A stretch of DNA of 46,754 bases from Acidimicrobiia bacterium (GCA_036446835.1 JAZFTT010000038.1:1-46754), one strand, 5' to 3'; shown: positions 194 to 36,790, numbered from the stretch's first letter. Notes: a model not told the origin generated them from the sequence alone. Numbers and translations are program-made.

Positions 194-742
194 TTACCCG
201 AAAAACGTGAAGGATTCAAGGGGTTCGTATCTGACACCACCTCCGTTGAAACGGCTTTCGTAGACCAAGATCTCATTGCACGACCATCGCAGGTCGAGTT
301 TTTCTGAGGTCAGAGGGCCGATATCCTCGGGTGGACGGATTCGTGACAGGGTGAGATGGGGTTGGTACGGACGCTCCTCCGGTTCGAGGCCGGCGGCTCG
401 GGCAGCCTCTTCGGCAATCTCGTTGAGCCGACCGAGTGTCTCCACACCCTCGATGACATCGACCCAGAGGACGGTCGCTCTTCGTTCGTTGGGAAAGCCT
501 CCCAACGAGCCGAGTCTGATCGGAAACGGGGACACACCTTCGACCCCGCTCATACCAGCGAGGAACCGTTCGTAGGTGACCTCGTCCACGACCCCCAGAA
601 ATCTCAGTGTCAGATGCCAGTTCTCCGGCGGGACCAGCTTGCCGGGAATGCCGAGAACCGATGTCCGGTCGGCCAGCGCCATCCGGATCTCGGGAGGCAG
701 CGGCACCGCGGCAAATACTCGCCCTAGTGGTCTGTCGCTCAA
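194..742 (-). CDS. thpR: RNA 2',3'-cyclic phosphodiesterase (2H phosphoesterase, LigT/ThpR family)
   Basis: Two H-x-T-x motifs are present (WHLTLRFLG and PHLTLSRI). The family normally starts near RVFAAVPLPPEIR, so I chose the in-frame TTG at 742 rather than the ORF maximum at 871. The start is uncertain. Confidence 0.8.
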   Translation of the reverse strand: MSDRPLGRVFAAVPLPPEIRMALADRTSVLGIPGKLVPPENWHLTLRFLGVVDEVTYERFLAGMSGVEGVSPFPIRLGSLGGFPNERRATVLWVDVIEGVETLGRLNEIAEEAARAAGLEPEERPYQPHLTLSRIRPPEDIGPLTSEKLDLRWSCNEILVYESRFNGGGVRYEPLESFTFFG

Positions 743-886
743 TTGATGCCGCGGTGTCACCGGGTAATCGGCGTCAACTGGCCAGGACGCACAACGAAGG
801 CGCAGCCATAGCTGCGTCGAGGCGGAGGACGCCGCCAGGGGCATCGAGGGCCGGTGAGACCGCGTAGCCACTTGGGCAACGGGCCA

Positions 887-2122
887 CTAGCGTCCCCACC
901 ATTTGCCGATCAGCGCCAGACGGATGAGATGCAACGCAGAAGTGACGGCGTAGGTGCGAACCCTTTCCCTATCCCCGACCATGCGCATCTCCTTTGCCTG
1001 TGTGTGCTCAGGAGTTGAGACACCGATGACCATGGTCCCGACCGGTTTCTCCAGCGGCTCCGGGCCCGCCGAACCGGTGACCGACACCACCACATCGGCG
1101 CCAAGCAACTCGCGTCCGCCCCGGGCCATCTCCTCCGCCGTCTCCAGGTCGACAACCGTCGATGCGTCCCTGACGCCGAGCAGACGCTCCTTCAATTCGG
1201 AGTGATAGGCAAGTATGCCACCGCGAGTAACGGCCGACTAGCCTGGCAGGGAGGTTAGTGGTGCGGTCACCAGGCCACCCGTCATCGACTCTGCCGCGGC
1301 GATGGTGTAGTCGAGTTCGGTGAGCAACTTGAAAATGACTCTCTCGATGGTTTCGTCATCGGTGCCAAACAGGACCGAGCCCATCCGGGACCTGACCTCG
1401 GTCTCCATCGGCTCGATCAGTTTCAATGCCGAGGCTCTGTCATCGGCCTTGGCGGTAATTCGAATCTTGATCTCGCCTCCGGAAGCGAGAAACGCAAGGG
1501 AGGGGTTGGTCGAGCTGCGATAGATGTCGTCCAGCGAATCGGCGATGTCCGACTCCGAGCGACCCCACGTGCGGAGGAGTCGGCTCGCCAGGACGGCCTT
1601 CTCGCCCGATGCGGCGGAGAGACGCGTAATCACCTCTTCGTGCAACAAGTGCTCCATCTCGGCAGGGACCCCGGGCACACAGAAGATCAGAGTGTCTTCG
1701 TGCTCGATCATCAGTCCCGGCGCGGTGCCCTTCGGGTTCGCCAGAAGCTCTGCACCGGCAGGATGCTCGGCCTGTTGGAGGTTGGACTCGGGCATCTCCC
1801 GGCCTCTGCGCTCCCACCACTCCCGCAGATGATCGGCGTACTCGTCACTGAACTCCATCTCGAGACCGGTAGCCAAACAAACCGCCTCCCTGGTGAGGTC
1901 ATCCTGGGTGGGGCCAATCCCCCCGGTGATGATCACCGCATCGGATCGTTTGATGGCAACTCTGATCGATTCCGCGACGCGAGCCTCATTGTCACCCACA
2001 ACCTGTTGGAAGTGAGCGTCAAAGCCGTGTTCGGCTAGAGCCGAGCCGATTGTCGATGCGTTGGTGTTCGTGATCTGGCCGAGCAGCAACTCGGTGCCGA
2101 CGGCGATTACCTCAACAATCAC
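887..2122 (-). pseudogene. cinA: CinA (MoCF-type N-domain plus PncC-type nicotinamide-nucleotide amidase C-domain), interrupted by an in-frame TAG at 1238-1240
   Basis: ORFs 1238..2179 and 887..1195 are in the same frame. Reading through gives ...AAAESMTGGLVTAPLTSLPG*SAVTRGGILAYHSELKERLLGV..., which is colinear with the PncC core (ESCTGG...GSS..F.GG..Y). The probable start, GTG at 2120-2122, overlaps the rimO stop TGA (GTGA). Confidence 0.8.
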
Positions 2123-3426
2123 AGAACAATGGCTTCCATGTCCGGGCCGTAGACCCCGGTGTACTCGACCTTGACCCATTCCCCCGGCTTGCCCCGGTCG
2201 ACGCGGACAACACCGTCGATCTCGGGAGCGTGCCGATATGAACGCCCCACCGGCACATCGTCTTCGACCTGATCGACGAGAATCTCATCGGCTCGACCCA
2301 GCCACGCCTCGTTGTGTGTGGTTGTGACCTCGTCCTGGATTCCGGAGAGATAGCGGAGTCGCTCCAGCGTCACCTCCCTCGGGACCTGATTGTCCATCGT
2401 GGCCGCAGGGGTGCCCGGTTCGGCCGAGTAGGGGAAGAACCCGGCCCAGTCGAGCCGGGCGTTGTCGAGGAAATCAGCAAGCTCGTCGACATTACCGTCG
2501 GTTTCGCCGGGGAAGCCGACAATGAAAGATGACCTAAGGGCCGACGACGGCTCGAGGTCGCGGATGCGGGACACCAGCGCAAGGTGCTTCTCCGTGTTCC
2601 CCGGACGTTTCATCGCCCTCAGCAACGGCTGGGAGACATGTTGAATGGAGAGATCGAAGTATGGGGCCACCATGACGTTGGACGTCATCTCGTCGAGGAG
2701 ACGGTCGCTGATCTCCCGCGGGTGCAGATAGAGCAGTCGGAGACGACGCAGACCGTCGACATCGGAAAGGAAGGCGAGAAGATCCGGAAGCCCGCCGGGG
2801 GCGTCGATGTCGCGTCCATAGGCTGCGAGATCCTGAGCGACCAGCACCACCTCGCTCACCCCGGAACTCACCAGGCCAACGAGCTCATTCCTGATCTCGG
2901 TCGGGCGTCGTGAACGTTGCTTGCCCCGAATCAGTGGGATAGCGCAGAAGGTGCACGGTTTGTTACATCCTTCGGCCACTTTGAGATACGCGTACGGCAG
3001 GTTTGAAACGGGGCGACCTGTGGCGTGCAGGATGTCCATGATCGGGCGCCGTTTGATGTCTACAGGATGCCAACGCGTCAGGTCATCGAGAACTCCCACC
3101 AGTTCGCCGTAGCGGTCGATCCCGAGAACGGCGTCGACTTCGGGTAGGGCCGACGACACCTCTGTACCGAAACGTTGAGCCATGCAACCGATCACGATCG
3201 ACCGGGCGTCGTCGCGCTTGCGATCTTGGAGGTCGAGGATGGTGTCAACCGACTCGGCCCGGGCCTCTTCAATGAATGCACAGGTGTTGACCATGACCAC
3301 GTCGGCGGTCTCGGGTGAGTCGGCCCAGACGTAACCGGCTTCGGAAAGCATCGCCGTGACCTTTTCCGAGTCGACCTGATTTTTTGCACAGCCAAGCGTT
3401 GTGAGCCATAGGGAAGGGACAGTCAT
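2119..3426 (-). CDS. rimO: Ribosomal protein S12 methylthiotransferase RimO (radical SAM plus TRAM domain)
   Basis: N-terminal LGCAKNQVDSE (UPF0004 domain), radical-SAM motif CNKPCTFCAIP, and a C-terminal TRAM-like domain. Start chosen at MTVPSLWLTTLGC (ATG 3424-3426). Confidence 0.9.
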   Translation of the reverse strand: MTVPSLWLTTLGCAKNQVDSEKVTAMLSEAGYVWADSPETADVVMVNTCAFIEEARAESVDTILDLQDRKRDDARSIVIGCMAQRFGTEVSSALPEVDAVLGIDRYGELVGVLDDLTRWHPVDIKRRPIMDILHATGRPVSNLPYAYLKVAEGCNKPCTFCAIPLIRGKQRSRRPTEIRNELVGLVSSGVSEVVLVAQDLAAYGRDIDAPGGLPDLLAFLSDVDGLRRLRLLYLHPREISDRLLDEMTSNVMVAPYFDLSIQHVSQPLLRAMKRPGNTEKHLALVSRIRDLEPSSALRSSFIVGFPGETDGNVDELADFLDNARLDWAGFFPYSAEPGTPAATMDNQVPREVTLERLRYLSGIQDEVTTTHNEAWLGRADEILVDQVEDDVPVGRSYRHAPEIDGVVRVDRGKPGEWVKVEYTGVYGPDMEAIVL

Positions 3427-3443
3427 CACCGGAGAGCATAAAT

Positions 3444-3463
3444 GCGTGTGCACTTACACACGC
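3444..3463 (-). terminator. Short hairpin between the 84-aa ORF and rimO
   Basis: GCGTGTG-cactta-CACACGC forms a 7-bp stem. On the minus-strand RNA it is followed by AUUUAU. It lies about 20 nt upstream of the rimO ATG and could be a weak terminator or attenuator. Confidence 0.3.
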
Positions 3464-3470
3464 CTGCAAC

Positions 3471-3725
3471 TCAGGAGCGACTCCCTTCGACCACCGCCAG
3501 GAGGTCTGGCGAGTCGACGGCGTCGGCGAGGGTATTCCAGGTGGCGGTGCTCACTCCGCCCTCCTCTTCGATCTCCGCACAGGCCAAATAGATGGCGTCG
3601 GCGAGGGGGCCGACCGCGTGATCGGCGTCGAACGCCTCGGAAACACAGGTGCGAGCCAAGGGGACGTCGCGTCGTCCGATGGCGCGAATCGCTTCTTCGG
3701 CGGAAGCCCTGGCCTTCGCCTCCAC
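3471..3725 (-). CDS. Hypothetical acidic 84-aa protein
   Basis: The ORF has a GTG start 2 nt after the stop of the upstream gene. Composition looks coding-like. No recognisable motif. Confidence 0.45.
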   Translation of the reverse strand: MEAKARASAEEAIRAIGRRDVPLARTCVSEAFDADHAVGPLADAIYLACAEIEEEGGVSTATWNTLADAVDSPDLLAVVEGSRS

Positions 3726-3727
3726 TT

Positions 3728-4783
3728 CTATATCTCGGCGAACAGATACCGGCGGAGAATGTCGAGCTTCTCCTCGCGGTGGGAGGGGTCCAGATACCAG
3801 AGCAGCGCTGCCACCGTGGAAAGAAGAGGGTTACCGTCCTGAGGAGTGAAAGAGAAACCCACGACCTCGTTGCCACTGCGCACCGCCAGGGTTTCCAGGG
3901 CAACAACAGCCTGGCTCATGATCCTTCCGTAGTAGCCGTGGTCGCGGCCAAACGAGAACACCTGATTCGCCGACTTCTTGTGGGTGACCGCGATCCGGGT
4001 ATTGGCCATCAGGCGCTCCCTCACCTCGTCCAACGTGATGTCGTGGTCAAGGATCAGAGAGAAGTGCAACGAGTGCATGTATTGCGAGTTCAGCTTGATC
4101 GCAGACGAGAACACGTTCAGGTCGTATCCCAGCGTGCTGAAGATGTCATGGGCGTCACGGGCGTGATGGGTGCCGAACCTCTCATCGCTATGCGCTCCCA
4201 CCGTCGGACTCGCCACATAGCCCGTGTCCTGGGAAATGTCGTTGGCTCTGCGCATGCACATGAAGCGTCCGTCGATGAGATGATTGGTCCCGTCGGTGTC
4301 CATGCCCAACGCCTTGATGAGCACCGAGATGTTGTGGGTGTTGCAACTCACGATCTGGAGAAACTTGTCGTCCTCCCGAGCCAGCGCCGAGTCGTTGATA
4401 CCCCTTGCGTACTTCTTACCGAAACCGTGCTCTGAGCCCTGGGCCATGAATCCGACGGGCCCGATCGCATCCAGATAGAAATCCTGCTTGTTCTGGTTAC
4501 CGACTGGGGTGCAGTCGATCACCACCGAAGCGCGTTCGATTGCCTCTCGCTTCTCGAACTTCGGCGTGTGACCCAACTCTTCAAAGGTCGACTTCTTGTC
4601 GTCGTCGACGCAGAGAACGGCCCCGCGGCGCACCAGATCCGCTACCTTGGCCCTCTCGGTGATCAGCGGAGTGCGTTTGTGAAAAGTGACCTCATCAAGT
4701 CCGAAGTGGTCTTTGTTGTCGGCCAGGAGACCGATCAGGGGCTCACCGATGGTCCCGGTTCCCACTACGTGGACGATGTTCAT
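3728..4783 (-). CDS. Type II (archaeal-type) glyceraldehyde-3-phosphate / semialdehyde dehydrogenase-like NAD(P) oxidoreductase
   Basis: N-terminal Rossmann motif VVGTGTIGEPL, plus the catalytic-Cys motif IVSCNTHN that resembles the archaeal GAPDH SCNT motif. Length 351 aa. Confidence 0.55.
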   Translation of the reverse strand: MNIVHVVGTGTIGEPLIGLLADNKDHFGLDEVTFHKRTPLITERAKVADLVRRGAVLCVDDDKKSTFEELGHTPKFEKREAIERASVVIDCTPVGNQNKQDFYLDAIGPVGFMAQGSEHGFGKKYARGINDSALAREDDKFLQIVSCNTHNISVLIKALGMDTDGTNHLIDGRFMCMRRANDISQDTGYVASPTVGAHSDERFGTHHARDAHDIFSTLGYDLNVFSSAIKLNSQYMHSLHFSLILDHDITLDEVRERLMANTRIAVTHKKSANQVFSFGRDHGYYGRIMSQAVVALETLAVRSGNEVVGFSFTPQDGNPLLSTVAALLWYLDPSHREEKLDILRRYLFAEI

Positions 4784-31032: not shown

Positions 31033-33120
31033 ATGCGCGGACGAGACCAGACATTTCTTGCCGATCTCATCGGTCCTGAGGACAAAGCAATCGAGGCTGT
31101 CGTCAGCCGATACCAGCGGGTTGCCCCTGCGGTCACCAGGCTTGCCCGGAGTCTTTCGGACAATCCCAACCTCCGGGTGCGGCTTGGCTCGGAGAGCGCC
31201 GCCTCACCGGACGAGGTTGTCTGTGACCCGCGGATCTTTCAGGCCGCCTATCACCGCAATGCTCCGGTCACGCCCGACGAGGTTGCCCTCGCCTCGGCTC
31301 TCCATGAGGTGATGCACCTGGTCTCGACAAATCTCGATGAGAAGAGGCCTCTCCCCGACGAGTGGCCCATCGAAGGTGACGTTGCCGAGGGTGTTGAGAT
31401 CGACCTCCTGACGGCTCTGGAGCGGACCGGAAGACCGGTGGCCGAGATCATCTTCTTCAGTCTCGAGGACGCCCGACAGGAGGCACAGGGTCTTTCGACG
31501 TACCCGGGCGCCAGGTCCGTCCTAGAGGACCTCTACCTATCGTCACTGAGTCAGGCCATCTCCAAGTCGGGAGCGCTCAGCCAGTTTGTCCTGGGATGTT
31601 TCCTTCTCACCGGCGGCTACGTCGAACGCGAGGTGCTCGAGCGGCGCTTCGAGGCCCGAGCAGCCGTGGCCATCGATGATGCAACTGAGCACTGCCGTCT
31701 CGCCGCAGAGACAACGGACCCTTGGTATGTGGCCCAGCTCGCTCTTGAACTCGAGGCAATCGCCCGCACTCACGGTCTCATCACCGAAGTACCCGATACC
31801 GCGACGAAGACTCAGCGCAAACTGACCGAGGACGAAGACGCCGAGGAGGCTGCAAGCGGCGTCGATGCTGTCCGCCTGACTTCGCCCATTGTCTCGGACT
31901 CGGACTCATATCAGGACACCAAGCGCGCCGCGGAATCCCGCTCGGGTCTGTCCGATCGCAGAGGGGCCTCCGATATTGCCGGCGACGAACCAACCGATCA
32001 ACTGCTCCGTGTCAGCCAAGCACCTGAAGTGTTTCTGCCGACGGGTCAGAGCGGAAAGCTCCTGGTGACAGCCATCCCGCACTCCTTCAGTGCTTTCAGC
32101 ACGGAGGGTCTCGAGTCGATGGAGGCAGCGGCCAAACGCTGGGGGGTCGCCCAACGAAAGGTCTCCGGTGAGCTCTTTCCCCTTTTTGCCGCCAACCAAC
32201 GACGTGGTCTCCGCTCCGGATTCGACCAGGGTGATGTCTCTCCGCACGCTGCCCTCTTCATTGGGGCCGGGCTCTACGAGAGACTATACGAGCGACGGTC
32301 AGCAAGGACCAGACGTCGGTATGCGGTGTCGCTTCTCGTGGACGCGTCGGCGTCGATGCTCAGCCCTGGTCGCGGCCACGGTCCGGGAACATCGTGGGCT
32401 ATGCCTGCCGCTCTCCTCGGCGCCTGGACTATGGCTCGACTCTGCGATGAGCTCCAGATCGACTTCGAGGTCGCACTCTTCAACCGCGGTTTCGCCGCGA
32501 AGCCAGAGGATACCGAGGACAGCTTTCGCCGGGCCCGTTCCGCAGCGACCGCCGGTCTTCGCCAGACTCAGGGGACCGCAGCGGACAGACTCACAAGCAC
32601 AGTGAACCACTACATGGTCAAGCCGTTCGATCGGCGATGGCGCGACGCTCAACACGCTCTGGCCGGCCTCTTCTTCACGGCGGCTGAGCCAAAAAAGGCC
32701 GCCGCATTGGCAAGACGCAATGGCAGCTCTGCACCACCCGTGTCGCTGTTCGAGAAGGCCGCCAATGTCGATGAGTTCAACGTCATTCACGCCGCTGAGC
32801 GCATGGGACGTCTCGGTGCCGACGTCAGGCTTCTCATGGTTCTCGCTGATGGCATGACGCGTGGATCGATGGAATCTCTCGCCAAGTCCGTTTCGTCCGT
32901 TGAGGCTGGAGGTACCACCGTCATCGGGATAGGCATCGGCGACCACACCGTCGACCACGCCTATCAGCGTCATGAGGCGGTGGAGGAGCCCGACCAGTTG
33001 GCCAAGGCGATGGTCGACGGCACCCGGAGCGCGTTGCGACGAGGCCTGGCGATGTCGGGCATGGACAGTTGGTGGGCGCGTACACCCCAGTTTCTAGTCA
33101 AGGAGAAGACAAGTGCCTGA
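31033..33120 (+). CDS. HExxH metallopeptidase-like N-domain plus CobT-like von Willebrand factor A (VWA) C-domain protein
   Basis: HEVMH at 31303-31317, an acidic linker, the MIDAS motif DASAS at 32341-32355, and a CobT-C-like tail (RLLMVLADGM...VIGIGIGDH). Confidence 0.8.
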   Translation: MRGRDQTFLADLIGPEDKAIEAVVSRYQRVAPAVTRLARSLSDNPNLRVRLGSESAASPDEVVCDPRIFQAAYHRNAPVTPDEVALASALHEVMHLVSTNLDEKRPLPDEWPIEGDVAEGVEIDLLTALERTGRPVAEIIFFSLEDARQEAQGLSTYPGARSVLEDLYLSSLSQAISKSGALSQFVLGCFLLTGGYVEREVLERRFEARAAVAIDDATEHCRLAAETTDPWYVAQLALELEAIARTHGLITEVPDTATKTQRKLTEDEDAEEAASGVDAVRLTSPIVSDSDSYQDTKRAAESRSGLSDRRGASDIAGDEPTDQLLRVSQAPEVFLPTGQSGKLLVTAIPHSFSAFSTEGLESMEAAAKRWGVAQRKVSGELFPLFAANQRRGLRSGFDQGDVSPHAALFIGAGLYERLYERRSARTRRRYAVSLLVDASASMLSPGRGHGPGTSWAMPAALLGAWTMARLCDELQIDFEVALFNRGFAAKPEDTEDSFRRARSAATAGLRQTQGTAADRLTSTVNHYMVKPFDRRWRDAQHALAGLFFTAAEPKKAAALARRNGSSAPPVSLFEKAANVDEFNVIHAAERMGRLGADVRLLMVLADGMTRGSMESLAKSVSSVEAGGTTVIGIGIGDHTVDHAYQRHEAVEEPDQLAKAMVDGTRSALRRGLAMSGMDSWWARTPQFLVKEKTSA

Positions 33121-34102
33121 AACCGTGATCTTCGAGGATCCCACTGCCGAGGGGCGACCTATAGAGCTCGAGAAGTTCGAGATGCCCGACAACGTAGCCG
33201 ATGTCGAGTTCCGTCTTCGCAAGGTGCCCGAACCCGACCCGCACTACGTAGATCTCGGAATGCTCTACCGCTTCGCCCAACTCGAGAAGGCCCGTCGAGC
33301 CGAGGCTGAGGGTCTTGTGCCGCTCCACATCGCGGTTCGGGGACACATGGGAACCGGCAAGGACCACGACATCGAGCAGTTCGCCGCCGCGATGGGTCTC
33401 CCCTACTTCCGTGTCCCGCTCACGGGCGAGGTTCGCGATGTCACCCTCATTGGCTCGACCCATCTGCATGGTGACGGCAAGGGTGGAACCGAAAGTCGCT
33501 GGGAGGATGGCGACATAACCCGTGCTCTCCGTGGCCCCGCGCTGCTCAACCTCTCCGAACTGAACGCGGCCGGCGCCGAGACGCTTTTTGCCCTTCACGG
33601 GCTTCTCGACCGCTATGCCGCTCTCGATCTTCCCAACGGGGAGACCGTCCGCCTGAGAGACGACGTGCGAGTCTTCGGTACCATGAATCCAACCGACATC
33701 AGGGATTACGCGGGCACCCAGACGCTCAACAAGGCCTTCGCCGATCGCTGGGTGATCTGGGAAAAGAAGTTTCCCGAAGAAGACCAGGTCAAGGCGATGC
33801 TGGTGCGGCGTTATCCCAAGTTGAAGGACGAATACGTCGAGGCCATCGCCAGGCTCACGATTGAGATCAACGCCTCGTTCGAGGAGTCGGACACCGGTGT
33901 TCGTGTGGAGACACCTCTATCGCTCCGCTCGGTCCTCGATCGGATCCCCACCGGTCTGCTCGTCTACGCCGACCGCGACGACCCGTTGCGCAAGGCCTGG
34001 AACGAGTTTGTCCTTCCACAGGTAGACGCCTACGACCGCGACCACTACGAAACGGTGTGGAACGCCGTCGTTCGAAAAGGCCCATCCAAAACCCCCTTCT
34101 AG
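33113..34102 (+). CDS. AAA+ ATPase, CobS/MoxR (AAA_5) type, with non-canonical Walker A and B
   Basis: GHMGTGKDHDIEQFAAAMGLPYFRVPL resembles CobS (G.GKS..IEQ.A..L..P..RV.L). Walker B reads LLNLSELNAA and sensor 1 reads VFGTMNP. The GTG start has AAGGAGAAG upstream and overlaps the upstream gene by 8 nt. Confidence 0.85.
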   Translation: MPETVIFEDPTAEGRPIELEKFEMPDNVADVEFRLRKVPEPDPHYVDLGMLYRFAQLEKARRAEAEGLVPLHIAVRGHMGTGKDHDIEQFAAAMGLPYFRVPLTGEVRDVTLIGSTHLHGDGKGGTESRWEDGDITRALRGPALLNLSELNAAGAETLFALHGLLDRYAALDLPNGETVRLRDDVRVFGTMNPTDIRDYAGTQTLNKAFADRWVIWEKKFPEEDQVKAMLVRRYPKLKDEYVEAIARLTIEINASFEESDTGVRVETPLSLRSVLDRIPTGLLVYADRDDPLRKAWNEFVLPQVDAYDRDHYETVWNAVVRKGPSKTPF

Positions 34103-34146
34103 GACCGGAAGCGCGGAGTACGGCGACGGGACAGTACGTTACGGAC

Positions 34147-35229
34147 ATGGCCTATGACCTGGGCAATCCGGAACTGGAGAAAACCATCCGACAGTTGGTC
34201 GCCGCCGCGTCGGACAACGACAACCAGGACCTGATCGGAGAGCTGATCACGACTGTACTCAAGTTGCATCGAGACGGCGCCACCCGTGGAGACCTCAAGC
34301 TGCTCAATACCGCGGTGAAGGAGATCCGCTACTCCAACCTCGTCTTCTCACGTCACGACGAGCCCAAGGTGACCATCTACGGGTCGGCGCGTCTTGGTGA
34401 AGGCGACCCCAACTACGAGTTGACAGTGAAGTTCGCTCGATTGATGGCCCACCATGGTTGGGGTGTGATCACCGGGGCAGGCCCGGGAATCATGGAGGCA
34501 GGCAATCGTGGCGCCGGTATCGACAACTCATACGGCGTCAACATCCGTCTCCCCTTCGAAGCGGCAGCGAACCCCTATCTGTCCGAGGCACGCACCGTCA
34601 ATTTCAAATATTTCTTCACCCGAAAGCTCGGGTTTGTCAAAGAGTCACATGCGTTTGTGATCCTTCCCGGCGGATTCGGAACCCTCGACGAGGCCTTTGA
34701 GCTGCTCACATTGATCCAGACCGGCAAAAGCGATCTACACCCGATTGTACTTCTCGAAGCGGAAGGGGCGAGCTATTGGGACCCGGTTCTCGACTTCGTC
34801 GAGAACGTCCAACTCGCCAGAGGCCTGATCTCGGAAGCGGACCTCTCGCTGTTTCTGCACACGACCAGCCCGTCCGAGGCCTGCGACCACATCCGTCACT
34901 TCTACAACAACTACCACTCTCAGCGATATGCCTCAGGCAAGCTCATCCTGCGAGTACGGCAGGCGCCGTCCACAGAGGAGCTGGCTGCCTTGAACGACGA
35001 ATTCGCCGATATCGTCGTCGACGGGACAATCGAGATAGCCGAACCCTCACCACCCGAGATCGTTGACGACGATGCTCTCGACTGCAATCGCATCGCGTTT
35101 GTGTTCGACAGGAGACAATTCGGGCGTCTTCGACAACTGGTCGACCGGCTCAACGAGATCGCAGAACTCCCGGAGGCAACCCGCATTCCGACACCGATGA
35201 GCGAGGAGCAAGCCGAAAGATCGTGGTAA
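34147..35229 (+). CDS. LOG-family (TIGR00730, nucleotide 5'-monophosphate nucleosidase / lysine-decarboxylase-like) protein with N- and C-terminal extensions
   Basis: GAGPGIMEAGNRGA and PGGFGTLDEAFE motifs. An alternative GTG start at 34057 would overlap the AAA+ gene by 46 nt. Confidence 0.85.
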   Translation: MAYDLGNPELEKTIRQLVAAASDNDNQDLIGELITTVLKLHRDGATRGDLKLLNTAVKEIRYSNLVFSRHDEPKVTIYGSARLGEGDPNYELTVKFARLMAHHGWGVITGAGPGIMEAGNRGAGIDNSYGVNIRLPFEAAANPYLSEARTVNFKYFFTRKLGFVKESHAFVILPGGFGTLDEAFELLTLIQTGKSDLHPIVLLEAEGASYWDPVLDFVENVQLARGLISEADLSLFLHTTSPSEACDHIRHFYNNYHSQRYASGKLILRVRQAPSTEELAALNDEFADIVVDGTIEIAEPSPPEIVDDDALDCNRIAFVFDRRQFGRLRQLVDRLNEIAELPEATRIPTPMSEEQAERSW

Positions 35230-35270: not shown

Positions 35271-36002
35271 GTGCGCGACATACTCTCTGATCTAGTAGCC
35301 GAGCAGCAGTTCCTCGACCAGTCCTTGCAGCGCATCCCGATCAAGGTCTGGGATCTCAAGACGCCCAACAAGCCGTGGACTGTCAGGGACACCATCGCCC
35401 ACCTGGCCGACTTCGAAGAGCTTGGCGCCGACGCAATCAACGGAGGCGAAAGGGTCAGGGAATGGCAGAGCACCTCGGACCTCGAAGCCTCGAAAAAGAA
35501 GGCAATCAAGAAAGGCCGCGCGATGCGCCCTCAAGATGTCATCGAGTGGTGGCGAGGCGGGCGCGCCAAGGTTGTGGAGCCACTGTCCCACATGAGCGGT
35601 GAGGACCGGATCAATTGGATCGCCGGCGACATGAGCGCCCGGACGTTCGCCACGTTTCGCTTGATGGAAACATGGATGCACGGTCTCGACATCTACGCCA
35701 CGCTCGGGATCGAGGTCGAAGACACACCGCGCATCCGTCACATCTGCTGGCTGGGATGGAAGACACTCCCCTACGCCTTCAGGGAAGCAGGCGAGGATTA
35801 CGAGCCGGTTCGGGTTGAGGTCATCGGCCCCGGTTACTCCAGGTGGATCTACGGGCCGGAGGACACCGATCAGTTGATCAAGGGGTCCGCTTCCGACTGG
35901 GCAAGGATCGTGGTTCGCCGTGCCAAGCCGAAAGACACCCGTCTGAAGGTGACAGGCGAGCGTGCGGAGACGGCGATTCAGGTAGCCAGGGCCTACCTGT
36001 GA
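35271..36002 (+). CDS. Maleylpyruvate-isomerase-family mycothiol-dependent (DinB/MDMPI_N, TIGR03084-like) protein
   Basis: N-terminus DLVAEQQFLDQSL...TPNKPWTVRDTIAHLADFEE matches the family layout. GTG start. Confidence 0.7.
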   Translation: MRDILSDLVAEQQFLDQSLQRIPIKVWDLKTPNKPWTVRDTIAHLADFEELGADAINGGERVREWQSTSDLEASKKKAIKKGRAMRPQDVIEWWRGGRAKVVEPLSHMSGEDRINWIAGDMSARTFATFRLMETWMHGLDIYATLGIEVEDTPRIRHICWLGWKTLPYAFREAGEDYEPVRVEVIGPGYSRWIYGPEDTDQLIKGSASDWARIVVRRAKPKDTRLKVTGERAETAIQVARAYL

Positions 36003-36790
36003 GTTCCATTCCCCACGTTGTGGGGATGGTCCATCTGCTCCCTCTTCCGGGCTCCCCCGAATTCAACGGCTCAATGGATGAGGTCGTCGAGACAGCAGTC
36101 TCCGACGCCTCCGCTCTGACAAAGGCCGGGTTTCCGGCTCTGATGGTAGAGAATTTTGGCGACACTCCATTCTTCGCCGACGGCGTTGCTTCGGAGACGA
36201 TCTCCGCCATGACGGTTGCCGTGACCGGCGTAATGGATGCGACCGGGGTGCCTATAGGCGTCAACGTCCTCCGCAATGACGCTCTTTCCGCCCTCGCTAT
36301 TGCAGCCGCGACCGGCGCCGCCTTCATAAGGGTCAACGTGTTGACAGGCATGATGTACACCGATCAGGGCCCGATCGTGGGCAGGGCGTCGGAGGTTCTT
36401 CGCAAACGCAGCGCACTGGCACCAGAAATCGAGATATGGGCGGATGTGATCGTCAAGCACGCTTCGGCACCGGCCGGGATCGACGCTCGACAAGCTGCCG
36501 CCGACACTGTTGAGCGCGGAGGGGCGGACGCTGTCATCGTCTCCGGTTCGGGCACCGGAGTGGAGCCCGACATCCATGAGGCCGGCGTGGTGAGGGCTGC
36601 GGTCCCAACCGAGACCCGCGTCGTGATCGGATCGGGTGCCAACGCAGACAATCTGTCGAGGCTCCTCAGAGCCGCTGACTCAGTGATCGTGGGATCGTCG
36701 ACAAAGGTCGACGGCGAAGCCCGCAACCGAGTTGACGCGCTCCGGGCTGCCCGATTCATCGAAGTCGCCCGCGACGAGGGGCTGCTGTGA
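35999..36790 (+). CDS. BtpA/SgcQ-family TIM-barrel protein
   Basis: VGMVHLLPLPGSPEF...ALMVENFGDTPFF...GVNVLRND. Start GTG at 35999 overlaps the upstream stop (GTGA). Confidence 0.75.
   Translation: MSSIPHVVGMVHLLPLPGSPEFNGSMDEVVETAVSDASALTKAGFPALMVENFGDTPFFADGVASETISAMTVAVTGVMDATGVPIGVNVLRNDALSALAIAAATGAAFIRVNVLTGMMYTDQGPIVGRASEVLRKRSALAPEIEIWADVIVKHASAPAGIDARQAAADTVERGGADAVIVSGSGTGVEPDIHEAGVVRAAVPTETRVVIGSGANADNLSRLLRAADSVIVGSSTKVDGEARNRVDALRAARFIEVARDEGLL

Follow-up and report, generated by a model that had tools for sequence, protein, structure and literature searches.

The 46,754-nucleotide (nt) stretch of DNA analysed here, referred to below as the window, comes from an Acidimicrobiia bacterium (GCA_036446835.1 JAZFTT010000038.1:1-46754), and our subject is a group of three genes on its plus strand between positions 31,033 and 35,229. 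Gene 1 (31033-33120) is an open reading frame (ORF) of 695 amino acids (aa) and encodes a predicted CobT-like adaptor. Gene 2 (33113-34102), an ORF of 329 aa with a GTG start, encodes a predicted CobS-type AAA+ ATPase, and gene 3 (34147-35229; 360 aa) encodes a predicted type-II LOG protein. A first-pass annotation of the window had joined the three into a single module that lacked a cobalamin context. The reading favoured here keeps genes 1 and 2 together as a motor-adaptor pair that works without CobN, and treats the LOG gene as an independent neighbour.

The three ORFs and the motifs on which that annotation was built, namely HEVMH and DASAS in gene 1 and PGGFGTLDE in gene 3, are all present and had been placed correctly. 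The junction between genes 1 and 2 reads AAGGAGAAGACAAGTGCCTGA; it bears out the GTG start, the strong Shine-Dalgarno sequence (AAGGAG, 7 nt 5' of the GTG) and the 8-nt overlap of the gene 2 start with the gene 1 stop that had been described, and by this arrangement gene 2 is predicted to be translationally coupled to gene 1. Gene 3 does lie close downstream, although the spacer measures 44 nt in the window and not 45. Its longest ORF spans 34057-35229, but its start is set at the ATG at 34147, because homology to every relative begins there and the ORF at a related locus (L018), where it is preceded by other genes, opens at that Met. In a promoter and terminator scan the counts were not above those of shuffled sequence, and no terminator-like site was found on the plus strand between genes 1 and 3. 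The base composition of the pair is unremarkable.

Three genome samples were used for comparison, covering the phylum (n=201), the taxonomic order of the window (n=61) and the class (n=151). These samples include related organisms, and the counts given below are therefore not independent events. The relatives are all uncultured metagenome-assembled genomes (MAGs), and the window's own genome is 81% complete. The structure models were built on shallow alignments of 20-27 sequences.

Gene 1 is organized in three parts. The N-terminal domain (31033-31782, residues 1-250) is mostly helical in the AlphaFold2 (AF2) model. It is followed by a linker (31783-32022, residues 251-330) of low model confidence, where the predicted local distance difference test (pLDDT) score falls to 47-61 at residues 281-320, as compared with a mean of 72.8 for the whole model. 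The linker had been described as acidic, and with 18 D/E vs 10 K/R it is net acidic, although only mildly so. The C-terminal part is a VWA domain (32317-33057, residues ~429-675), recognized by Foldseek and by profile comparison, which carries the MIDAS motif DASAS (32341-32355, residues 437-441). The three motif residues D437, S439 and S441 are invariant in two alignments of the family (A1 and A2), and D606 and G607 are likewise invariant.

The relation of gene 1 to CobT becomes visible when profiles and intermediate sequences are used. Profile A1, made from the gene 1 family and its intermediates, matches the solved CobT chain 9uka_G at E=3.2e-46, in an alignment that spans both the N-domain and the VWA domain and runs from the EDARQE helix of the former (EQARVE in CobT) through the latter. 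The gene 1 profile also matches the crystal chain of the CobT VWA domain (21vt_A) at 9e-35. Among 1.84 billion representative proteins, just 166 reach E<=1e-3 against gene 1. Each of its best 120 database relatives has 77% identity or more, and remote full-length matches of 600-750 aa are Pfam-positive for CobT and CobT_C; a further full-length relative, a 650-aa protein of a marine Acidimicrobiia (P0131), shares 30% identity. When the gene 1 model was compared with the Protein Data Bank (PDB) by Foldseek, the best matches were the NorD VWA domain (9qhd_G, 2.9e-6) and the MIDAS domains of MDN1/Rea1, and in the viral library BFVD they were full-length phage CobT-like and VWFA proteins (1.6e-12 to 1e-8). 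There are weak matches to phrog_1576, 5298 and 17276 as well. Because the A1 profile, the Pfam-positive intermediates and the NorD/midasin and phage fold matches agree, gene 1 is, as judged by homology, a divergent CobT-like adaptor.

One competing match within the N-domain was set aside. Residues 24-129 had resembled a restriction enzyme (NgoMIV, PDB 1fiu, E=0.0017; PADLOC model REase_II, 6.5e-4), and this was rejected as chance because the region belongs to the helical N-domain that is homologous to CobT and because the fold search returned no nuclease. The N-domain also varies in length. In one family of the relatives (f3) and in genome G160, an acidic insertion of ~45-80 aa lies between the HExxH and EDARQE helices, after about residue 113-120, and gives ORFs of 770-877 aa (loci L006/L008 of G160, L007/L009 of G133, and P0121); the loop at this point thus tolerates large insertions.

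The most conspicuous feature of the N-domain is the motif HEVMH (31303-31317, residues 91-95), which lies in a helix of residues 81-98 preceded by short strands in the model. A candidate third metal ligand, E150, lies in the EDARQE helix (31465-31482; residues 135-153 in the model) and aligns with EQARVE of true CobT. Conservation of HExxH among orthologues was one of the checks that the first-pass annotation had called for, and it holds: no variation is seen at H91, E92, H95 and E150 in the window's family, in the relatives from a clade of ~1-Mb genomes or in the Pfam-positive CobT-like intermediates (alignments A1, A2 and A3). It was also right that canonical CobT has no HExxH, since the annotated CobT of S. 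meliloti shows GDSMALRK opposite LHEVMHLV of gene 1 while retaining the EQARVE helix. However, the motif is not novel to gene 1, because phage proteins and Pfam-positive CobT-like proteins carry it. For example, in the cyanophage P-RSM6 a 736-aa 'hypothetical' protein encoded directly upstream of CobS bears both HEVGH and a MIDAS motif, DWSGS, whereas the CobT of Pseudomonas phage nickie has lost the His residues and the pair is still retained. Judged by these alignments, HExxH...E is ancestral to the phage-type CobT-like branch and was lost by true CobT.

What the motif does is a separate matter. The N-domain modelled alone (residues 1-250) gave a confident model, with a pLDDT of 84.6 and a predicted TM-score (pTM) of 0.82, but in a Foldseek search of the PDB nothing reached E<=1e-3 and the top matches included no peptidase; the library ends in April 2026 and apparently does not hold the newest CobT structures. 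No peptidase family matched gene 1 in Pfam or NCBIfam. In the solved CobST complex, the CobT N-domain docks on the small (lid) domain of CobS (bioRxiv 10.64898/2026.10.09.757910), and viral cobT has often been mis-annotated as a peptidase (PMC8651126). We infer that HExxH...E is a putative metal-binding site rather than a proven protease centre.

Gene 2 matches Pfam AAA_5 at 1.9e-13 and the phage CobS family phrog_249 at 5.9e-27, while its score against the CobS equivalog TIGR01650 is 51 bits, far below the cut-off of 558.55, and gene 2 is accordingly homologous to CobS but not an equivalog. Among solved structures, CobS (9ujv_A, 1.8e-12) provides the best single stretch, at 49.8 bits, followed by NorQ and CbbQ. 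A match to midasin at 2.6e-27 looks stronger, but this value sums five midasin AAA modules, the best single stretch of which reaches 32.5 bits, and a midasin-like identity was therefore rejected. The sequence is well conserved: orthologues in the order share 65-88% identity with it and those of the 1-Mb clade 55-60%, as compared with only 25-29% for phage CobS.

The ATP site of gene 2 departs from the canonical form at two positions. In Walker A (GHMGTGKD, 33341-33364; aligned with GYHGTGKST of CobS), Asp replaces the usual Ser/Thr after the Lys. In Walker B (NLSELN, 33548-33565; aligned with LVFDEYD of CobS and LDELN of midasin), Ser replaces the usual Asp and the Glu is kept. GKD and SE are each found without exception in 18 gene 2 orthologues drawn from the two pair-bearing lineages, whereas the CobS proteins of phages P-RSM6 and nickie have the canonical GKT/GKS and DE. 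In the aligned sequences, then, the magnesium (Mg)-coordinating positions are reciprocally exchanged, and the exchange is fixed. The catalytic Glu, sensor 1 (GTMNP) and the remaining fold are all retained. Because the exchange is reciprocal and fixed and the catalytic Glu is kept, the site suggests an ATPase that would be active with a rewired Mg site.

The two genes are distributed together. In the phylum sample, the window's order (5/5) is the only one to yield gene 1, and in the order sample genes 1 and 2 were each found in 61/61 genomes, adjacent and in the T-then-S order wherever both lie on one contig. In the class sample, orthologues of gene 2 occur in 36/36 genomes of the order, in 34/35 of a family with ~1-Mb genomes (f65) and in 0/~79 of the others. 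The surroundings are also fixed. In the order, an M16 peptidase gene on the minus strand is followed by gene 1, gene 2, a gap of 0-2.6 kb, the LOG gene, an MDMPI_N gene and a BtpA-family gene. In the 1-Mb clade, dapB on the minus strand is followed by gene 1 and gene 2, two opposite-strand genes, and then MDMPI_N and BtpA. A contig recorded as 'uncultured Boseongicola sp.', an alphaproteobacterium (L011, CAXMMT010000055.1), shows 94-97% protein identity to the M16, gene 1, gene 2, LOG and MDMPI proteins of the window and is probably a mis-binned or mislabelled MAG contig.

A cobalamin context is missing not only from the window, as had been noted, but from the genomes. The CobN/ChlH family (PF02514) was found in 0/61 genomes of the order and not in the window's own, in searches that were positive for the control genomes. 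CbiC was found in 0/5 near-complete pair-bearing genomes, and neither CbiC nor CobD turned up in the window's own genome, at its 81% completeness. The suggestion to look for the genuine cobN, cobS and cobT genes in that genome thus led to no CobN, and gene 2 is its sole CobS-like gene. The flavour of a conflict system that had been read into the pair did not hold up: the PADLOC search returned only two marginal and unrelated matches, the REase_II match mentioned above and MkoA (8.6e-3). Because the pair is universal in the order, syntenic and highly conserved, with CobN absent and the defence search essentially null, we conclude that it is a vertically inherited housekeeping function, neither part of a cobalamin gene set nor a patchy or mobile defence system.

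Gene 3 belongs to a well-known family. It matches Pfam Lysine_decarbox at 1.3e-27 and TIGR00730 at 105.9 bits, above the cut-off of 96.35, and its profile matches 5wq3_A at 9.5e-58 over the LOG core, residues 68-251. The signature PGGFGTLDE lies at 34666-34692, where P174, G175, G176, G178, T179, D181 and E182 are invariant, and the GAGPG and PGGxGTxxE motifs are invariant throughout the same alignment (A4). Since the score against the PpnN equivalog NF038390 is 34.2 bits (cut-off 450) and the PpnN chains in the PDB align to the core only, gene 3 is, by family assignment, a type-II LOG nucleotide phosphoribohydrolase and not PpnN. The core is flanked by ~67 aa on the N-terminal side and ~110 aa on the C-terminal side; the latter comprise a domain of ~90 aa (34900-35175, residues 252-343) that is conserved class-wide and a tail (35176-35226) ending in EEQAERSW that is common to relatives from some families of the order. 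Searches of these extensions, in pieces against Pfam and by profile against PDB sequences, gave no homologue. The profile searches that had been recommended for the three genes therefore recovered AAA_5 and Lysine_decarbox/LOG, while gene 1 obtained neither a Pfam or NCBIfam family of its own nor a peptidase match.

The distribution of the LOG gene differs from that of the pair. An extended LOG, aligning from residue 3 to about 340, occurs in ~66/71 other Acidimicrobiia genera that do not have the pair, and in six pair-less genomes of other families its contexts contain neither M16 nor gene 1 or gene 2. It is found in 0/35 genomes of the 1-Mb clade, which keeps the pair, and is also absent from G237, a single contig with an estimated completeness of 96% in which the pair is present. 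The LOG C-terminal domain occurs in ~350-aa ORFs of other actinobacterial families (10/10 genomes of f15 and 14/14 of f17). The tail motif EEQAER[PS]W is seen in full-length alignments in four families (f1, f57, f59 and f63); most families of the pair-bearing order lack it or have a divergent form, and it is absent from six orthologues in other orders.

The neighbourhood tells the same story. Genes 1 and 2 remain adjacent throughout the order, but gene 3, which lies downstream on the same strand in ~53 of 54 genomes with a shared contig, abuts gene 2 in just ~40% of the order genomes and is often separated from it by unrelated genes. By a hand tally, ~22 of ~54 such genomes have a gap of <200 nt and most of the remainder one of 0.45-1.2 kb; five have gaps of 1.7-2.6 kb, and in a single genome the gap reaches 11 kb. 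The inserted genes include two alpha/beta-hydrolase genes (L018, 9103-10937) and a glyoxalase-like ORF of 141 aa (L031, 9159-9584). Because the LOG distribution is decoupled from that of the pair and because inserts separate genes 2 and 3, the three-gene module proposed by the first-pass annotation is unsupported. Gene 3 is most likely a neighbour through shared synteny rather than a motor component, and it should not be annotated as part of a CobS/CobT-like system.

Taken together, we consider it probable, at about 0.75, that genes 1 and 2 form a CobN-independent motor-adaptor pair of the CobS/CobT type, composed of a MoxR-class AAA+ ATPase and a VWA-MIDAS protein, with the LOG gene as an independent neighbour. 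How such a pair might work can be sketched from its solved relatives (bioRxiv 10.64898/2026.10.09.757910 and 10.64898/2026.07.21.739949). By analogy with CobST, NorQD and CbbQO, gene 2 would assemble into a hexameric motor ring. The helical N-domain of gene 1 would dock on the ATPase lid, and its flexible linker would allow the VWA domain to be seated on the ring, where a client protein could be held, by one of its acidic residues, at the MIDAS face. ATP turnover would then remodel the client or load a cofactor into it.

Several points weigh against this reading. Gene 1, searched whole or in pieces, matched no Pfam or NCBIfam family (the sub-threshold E-values in the family searches were 0.16 for CobT, 0.018 for VWA_CoxE and 0.16 for VWA), and its relation to CobT is carried by profiles and intermediates in place of a direct match to a curated family. 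The non-canonical Mg ligands could mean that gene 2 is inactive or acts as a slow switch. No client was identified, and among the candidate genes none shows strict linkage to the pair. The two pair-bearing lineages are perhaps sisters, in which case the distribution may represent a single gain. An intact and invariant HExxH...E is the pattern expected of a real zinc peptidase, and a single AF2 model without a Foldseek match may be compatible with a divergent zincin. Finally, nearly every genome of the order has gene 3 downstream of the pair and in the same orientation, at a distance of just 44 nt in the window, and gene 3 may be co-transcribed with the pair and have a local functional tie to it.

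The last two of these points each lead to a different explanation. If the HExxH...E domain were an active gluzincin-type peptidase, the pair would be an ATP-regulated metalloprotease that cleaves a client presented by the VWA and AAA+ parts. The invariance of the four residues across lineages only ~30% identical, the placement of the motif in a helix after short strands, its retention in cyanophage and other CobT-like proteins and the frequent annotation of viral cobT as a peptidase are all in keeping with this. We nevertheless hold it to be unlikely, given that the confident N-domain model found no PDB match and no peptidase, that neither Pfam nor NCBIfam offers a peptidase family, that the homologous N-domain of CobT is known for docking on CobS, and that the His residues have gone from true CobT and phage nickie, in which the pair is nevertheless kept. 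The LOG protein, for its part, might be a client or regulator of the motor, captured for example via its acidic C-terminal tail, in what would be one nucleotide-linked chaperone or activation system. The close same-strand position of gene 3 speaks for such a trio, as does a tail that is seen in some families of the order and not in orders without the pair. But most families of that same order have no such tail or a divergent one, the extended LOG and its C-terminal domain are common where there is no pair, the 1-Mb clade and G237 have the pair without the LOG, and hydrolase or glyoxalase-like genes intervene in many relatives; a functional trio thus appears doubtful at best.

Two further explanations start from the relatives of the pair. 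The closest characterised ones are chelatase motors, and a cryptic chelatase would use the pair to drive metal insertion into a tetrapyrrole or another cofactor with a catalytic subunit unrelated to CobN/ChlH; the BtpA-family genes 2-3 kb downstream share the within-class distribution of the pair and could be read in this light. We regard this as very improbable in view of the 0/61 result for CobN/ChlH, the absence of CbiC from the six genomes searched and of CobD from the window's own, the irregular occurrence of BtpA detailed below and the lack of any linked chelatase-like gene. By profile and by fold, on the other hand, the pair stands nearest to phage CobS and CobT-like proteins, which also share the T-then-S order, and on these grounds it might be a domesticated phage or mobile-element module with a role in defence or counter-defence, for instance a conflict system of the VMAP kind. 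This is hardly credible for a pair that is universal in its order, holds a fixed core position beside M16 or dapB, is very highly conserved in sequence and has been retained in streamlined 1-Mb genomes, with unremarkable base composition, two marginal PADLOC matches, and neither mobile-element hallmarks at its flanks nor a patchy strain-level distribution. We therefore return to the CobN-independent motor-adaptor pair as the preferred reading.

The sole lead for a client is the BtpA-family gene at 36017-36790, just upstream of which lies the MDMPI_N gene (35271-36002). BtpA (PF03437, a TIM-barrel family) occurs in 29/36 genomes of the order, in 34/35 of the 1-Mb clade and in 0/79 elsewhere in the class sample, and in either pair-bearing lineage its distance downstream of gene 2 is 2-3 kb. 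As an obligate partner it was rejected, with 7 pair-bearing genomes of the order lacking BtpA and 8 other actinobacterial genomes having BtpA without gene 1, and the pattern that it shares with the pair would amount to one event if the two lineages are sisters. BtpA is accordingly a lead and not a finding. MDMPI_N was also considered as a co-distributed partner and was set aside, as the family has too many paralogues to be informative. A more specific picture can be drawn, although we think it rather unlikely in its entirety: a housekeeping machine for remodelling or metal loading, in which Walker A has taken over the Asp of Walker B, HExxH...E holds a metal or acts on the client, and the client is itself a conserved cellular protein, with BtpA as the first candidate. 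Were this picture true, motors of the CobS/CobT type, including the cobST of cyanophages and other viruses, would function without any involvement of CobN.

The pair bears on the annotation of phage genes. Phages commonly carry CobS/CobT-like genes with no CobN, and these usually receive the label 'cobalamin' or 'porphyrin biosynthesis'. A core chromosomal pair in organisms that have neither CobN nor a corrin pathway, including the streamlined 1-Mb clade, points to a function independent of CobN and speaks against such labels. The fixed exchange of Mg ligands is, in addition, a natural experiment on one of the most conserved active sites in biology.

Known systems resemble the pair and its neighbour to different degrees. 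The core of gene 3 matches the type-II LOG cytokinin riboside 5'-monophosphate phosphoribohydrolases of C. glutamicum (5wq3, 5zi9) and T. thermophilus (TT1465, 1wek) at 1e-48 to 1e-58; unlike these proteins, it has the extra conserved C-terminal domain of ~90 aa and, in part of the order, a tail ending in Trp. The MoxR-VWA conflict systems (VMAP-type; eLife 2020, PMC7159879) differ from the pair, which has neither a meaningful match to the defence models nor a patchy distribution. NorQ-NorD, CbbQ-CbbO and midasin (Rea1/MDN1) have an AAA_5-type ATPase and a MIDAS DxSxS in common with the pair, and the NorD VWA and MDN1/Rea1 MIDAS domains are the best solved-structure matches to the VWA fold of gene 1. 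However, these systems have clients that are encoded nearby or known, namely nitric oxide reductase, Rubisco and pre-60S factors, and none is evident for the pair.

CobST, which supplies the motor and adaptor of the aerobic cobaltochelatase CobNST (9ujv and 9uka series; bioRxiv 10.64898/2026.07.21.739949 and 10.64898/2026.10.09.757910), is closer. Like the pair, it consists of an AAA+ protein of ~330 aa and an adaptor of ~630-700 aa; CobT is laid out like gene 1, its helical N-domain joined by a flexible linker to a VWA/MIDAS domain at the C-terminus; the two adaptors have the EQARVE-type helix in common; and homology can be detected over both proteins. The differences concern both sequence and setting. 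True CobT has GDSMALRK in place of HExxH and a linker much longer than the mildly acidic one of gene 1, and solved CobS has GKS and DE where gene 2 has GKD and SE. Cobaltochelatase, furthermore, works with CobN and the corrin pathway, neither of which was found in the pair's genomes in the searches made, and the T-then-S order noted in the first-pass annotation is indeed the reverse of cobS-cobT in S. meliloti.

We found no published description of the cellular Acidimicrobiia pair in the literature, and its best profile and fold matches, for both genes, are the viral cobT-cobS clusters, which are known from tailed phages and archaeal viruses (phrog_249, cyanophage, nickie; PMC8651126). In P-RSM6 the cluster occupies 417-3858 of the locus examined (L050), where the HExxH-VWA partner is annotated merely as 'hypothetical protein'. 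In nickie (L045, 5974-9375) it lies amid replication genes for a primase, a ligase and the alpha subunit of DNA polymerase III. The viral clusters share the T-then-S order with the pair and, like it, have no CobN alongside, and the 'cobalamin' and 'porphyrin biosynthesis' labels of the phage genes look unfounded. The published idea that viral CobST hijacks the CobN of the host is inapplicable to the pair because there is no CobN in these genomes. Unlike the viral clusters, the Acidimicrobiia pair is chromosomal, belongs to the core genome, is vertically inherited and occupies a fixed syntenic position.

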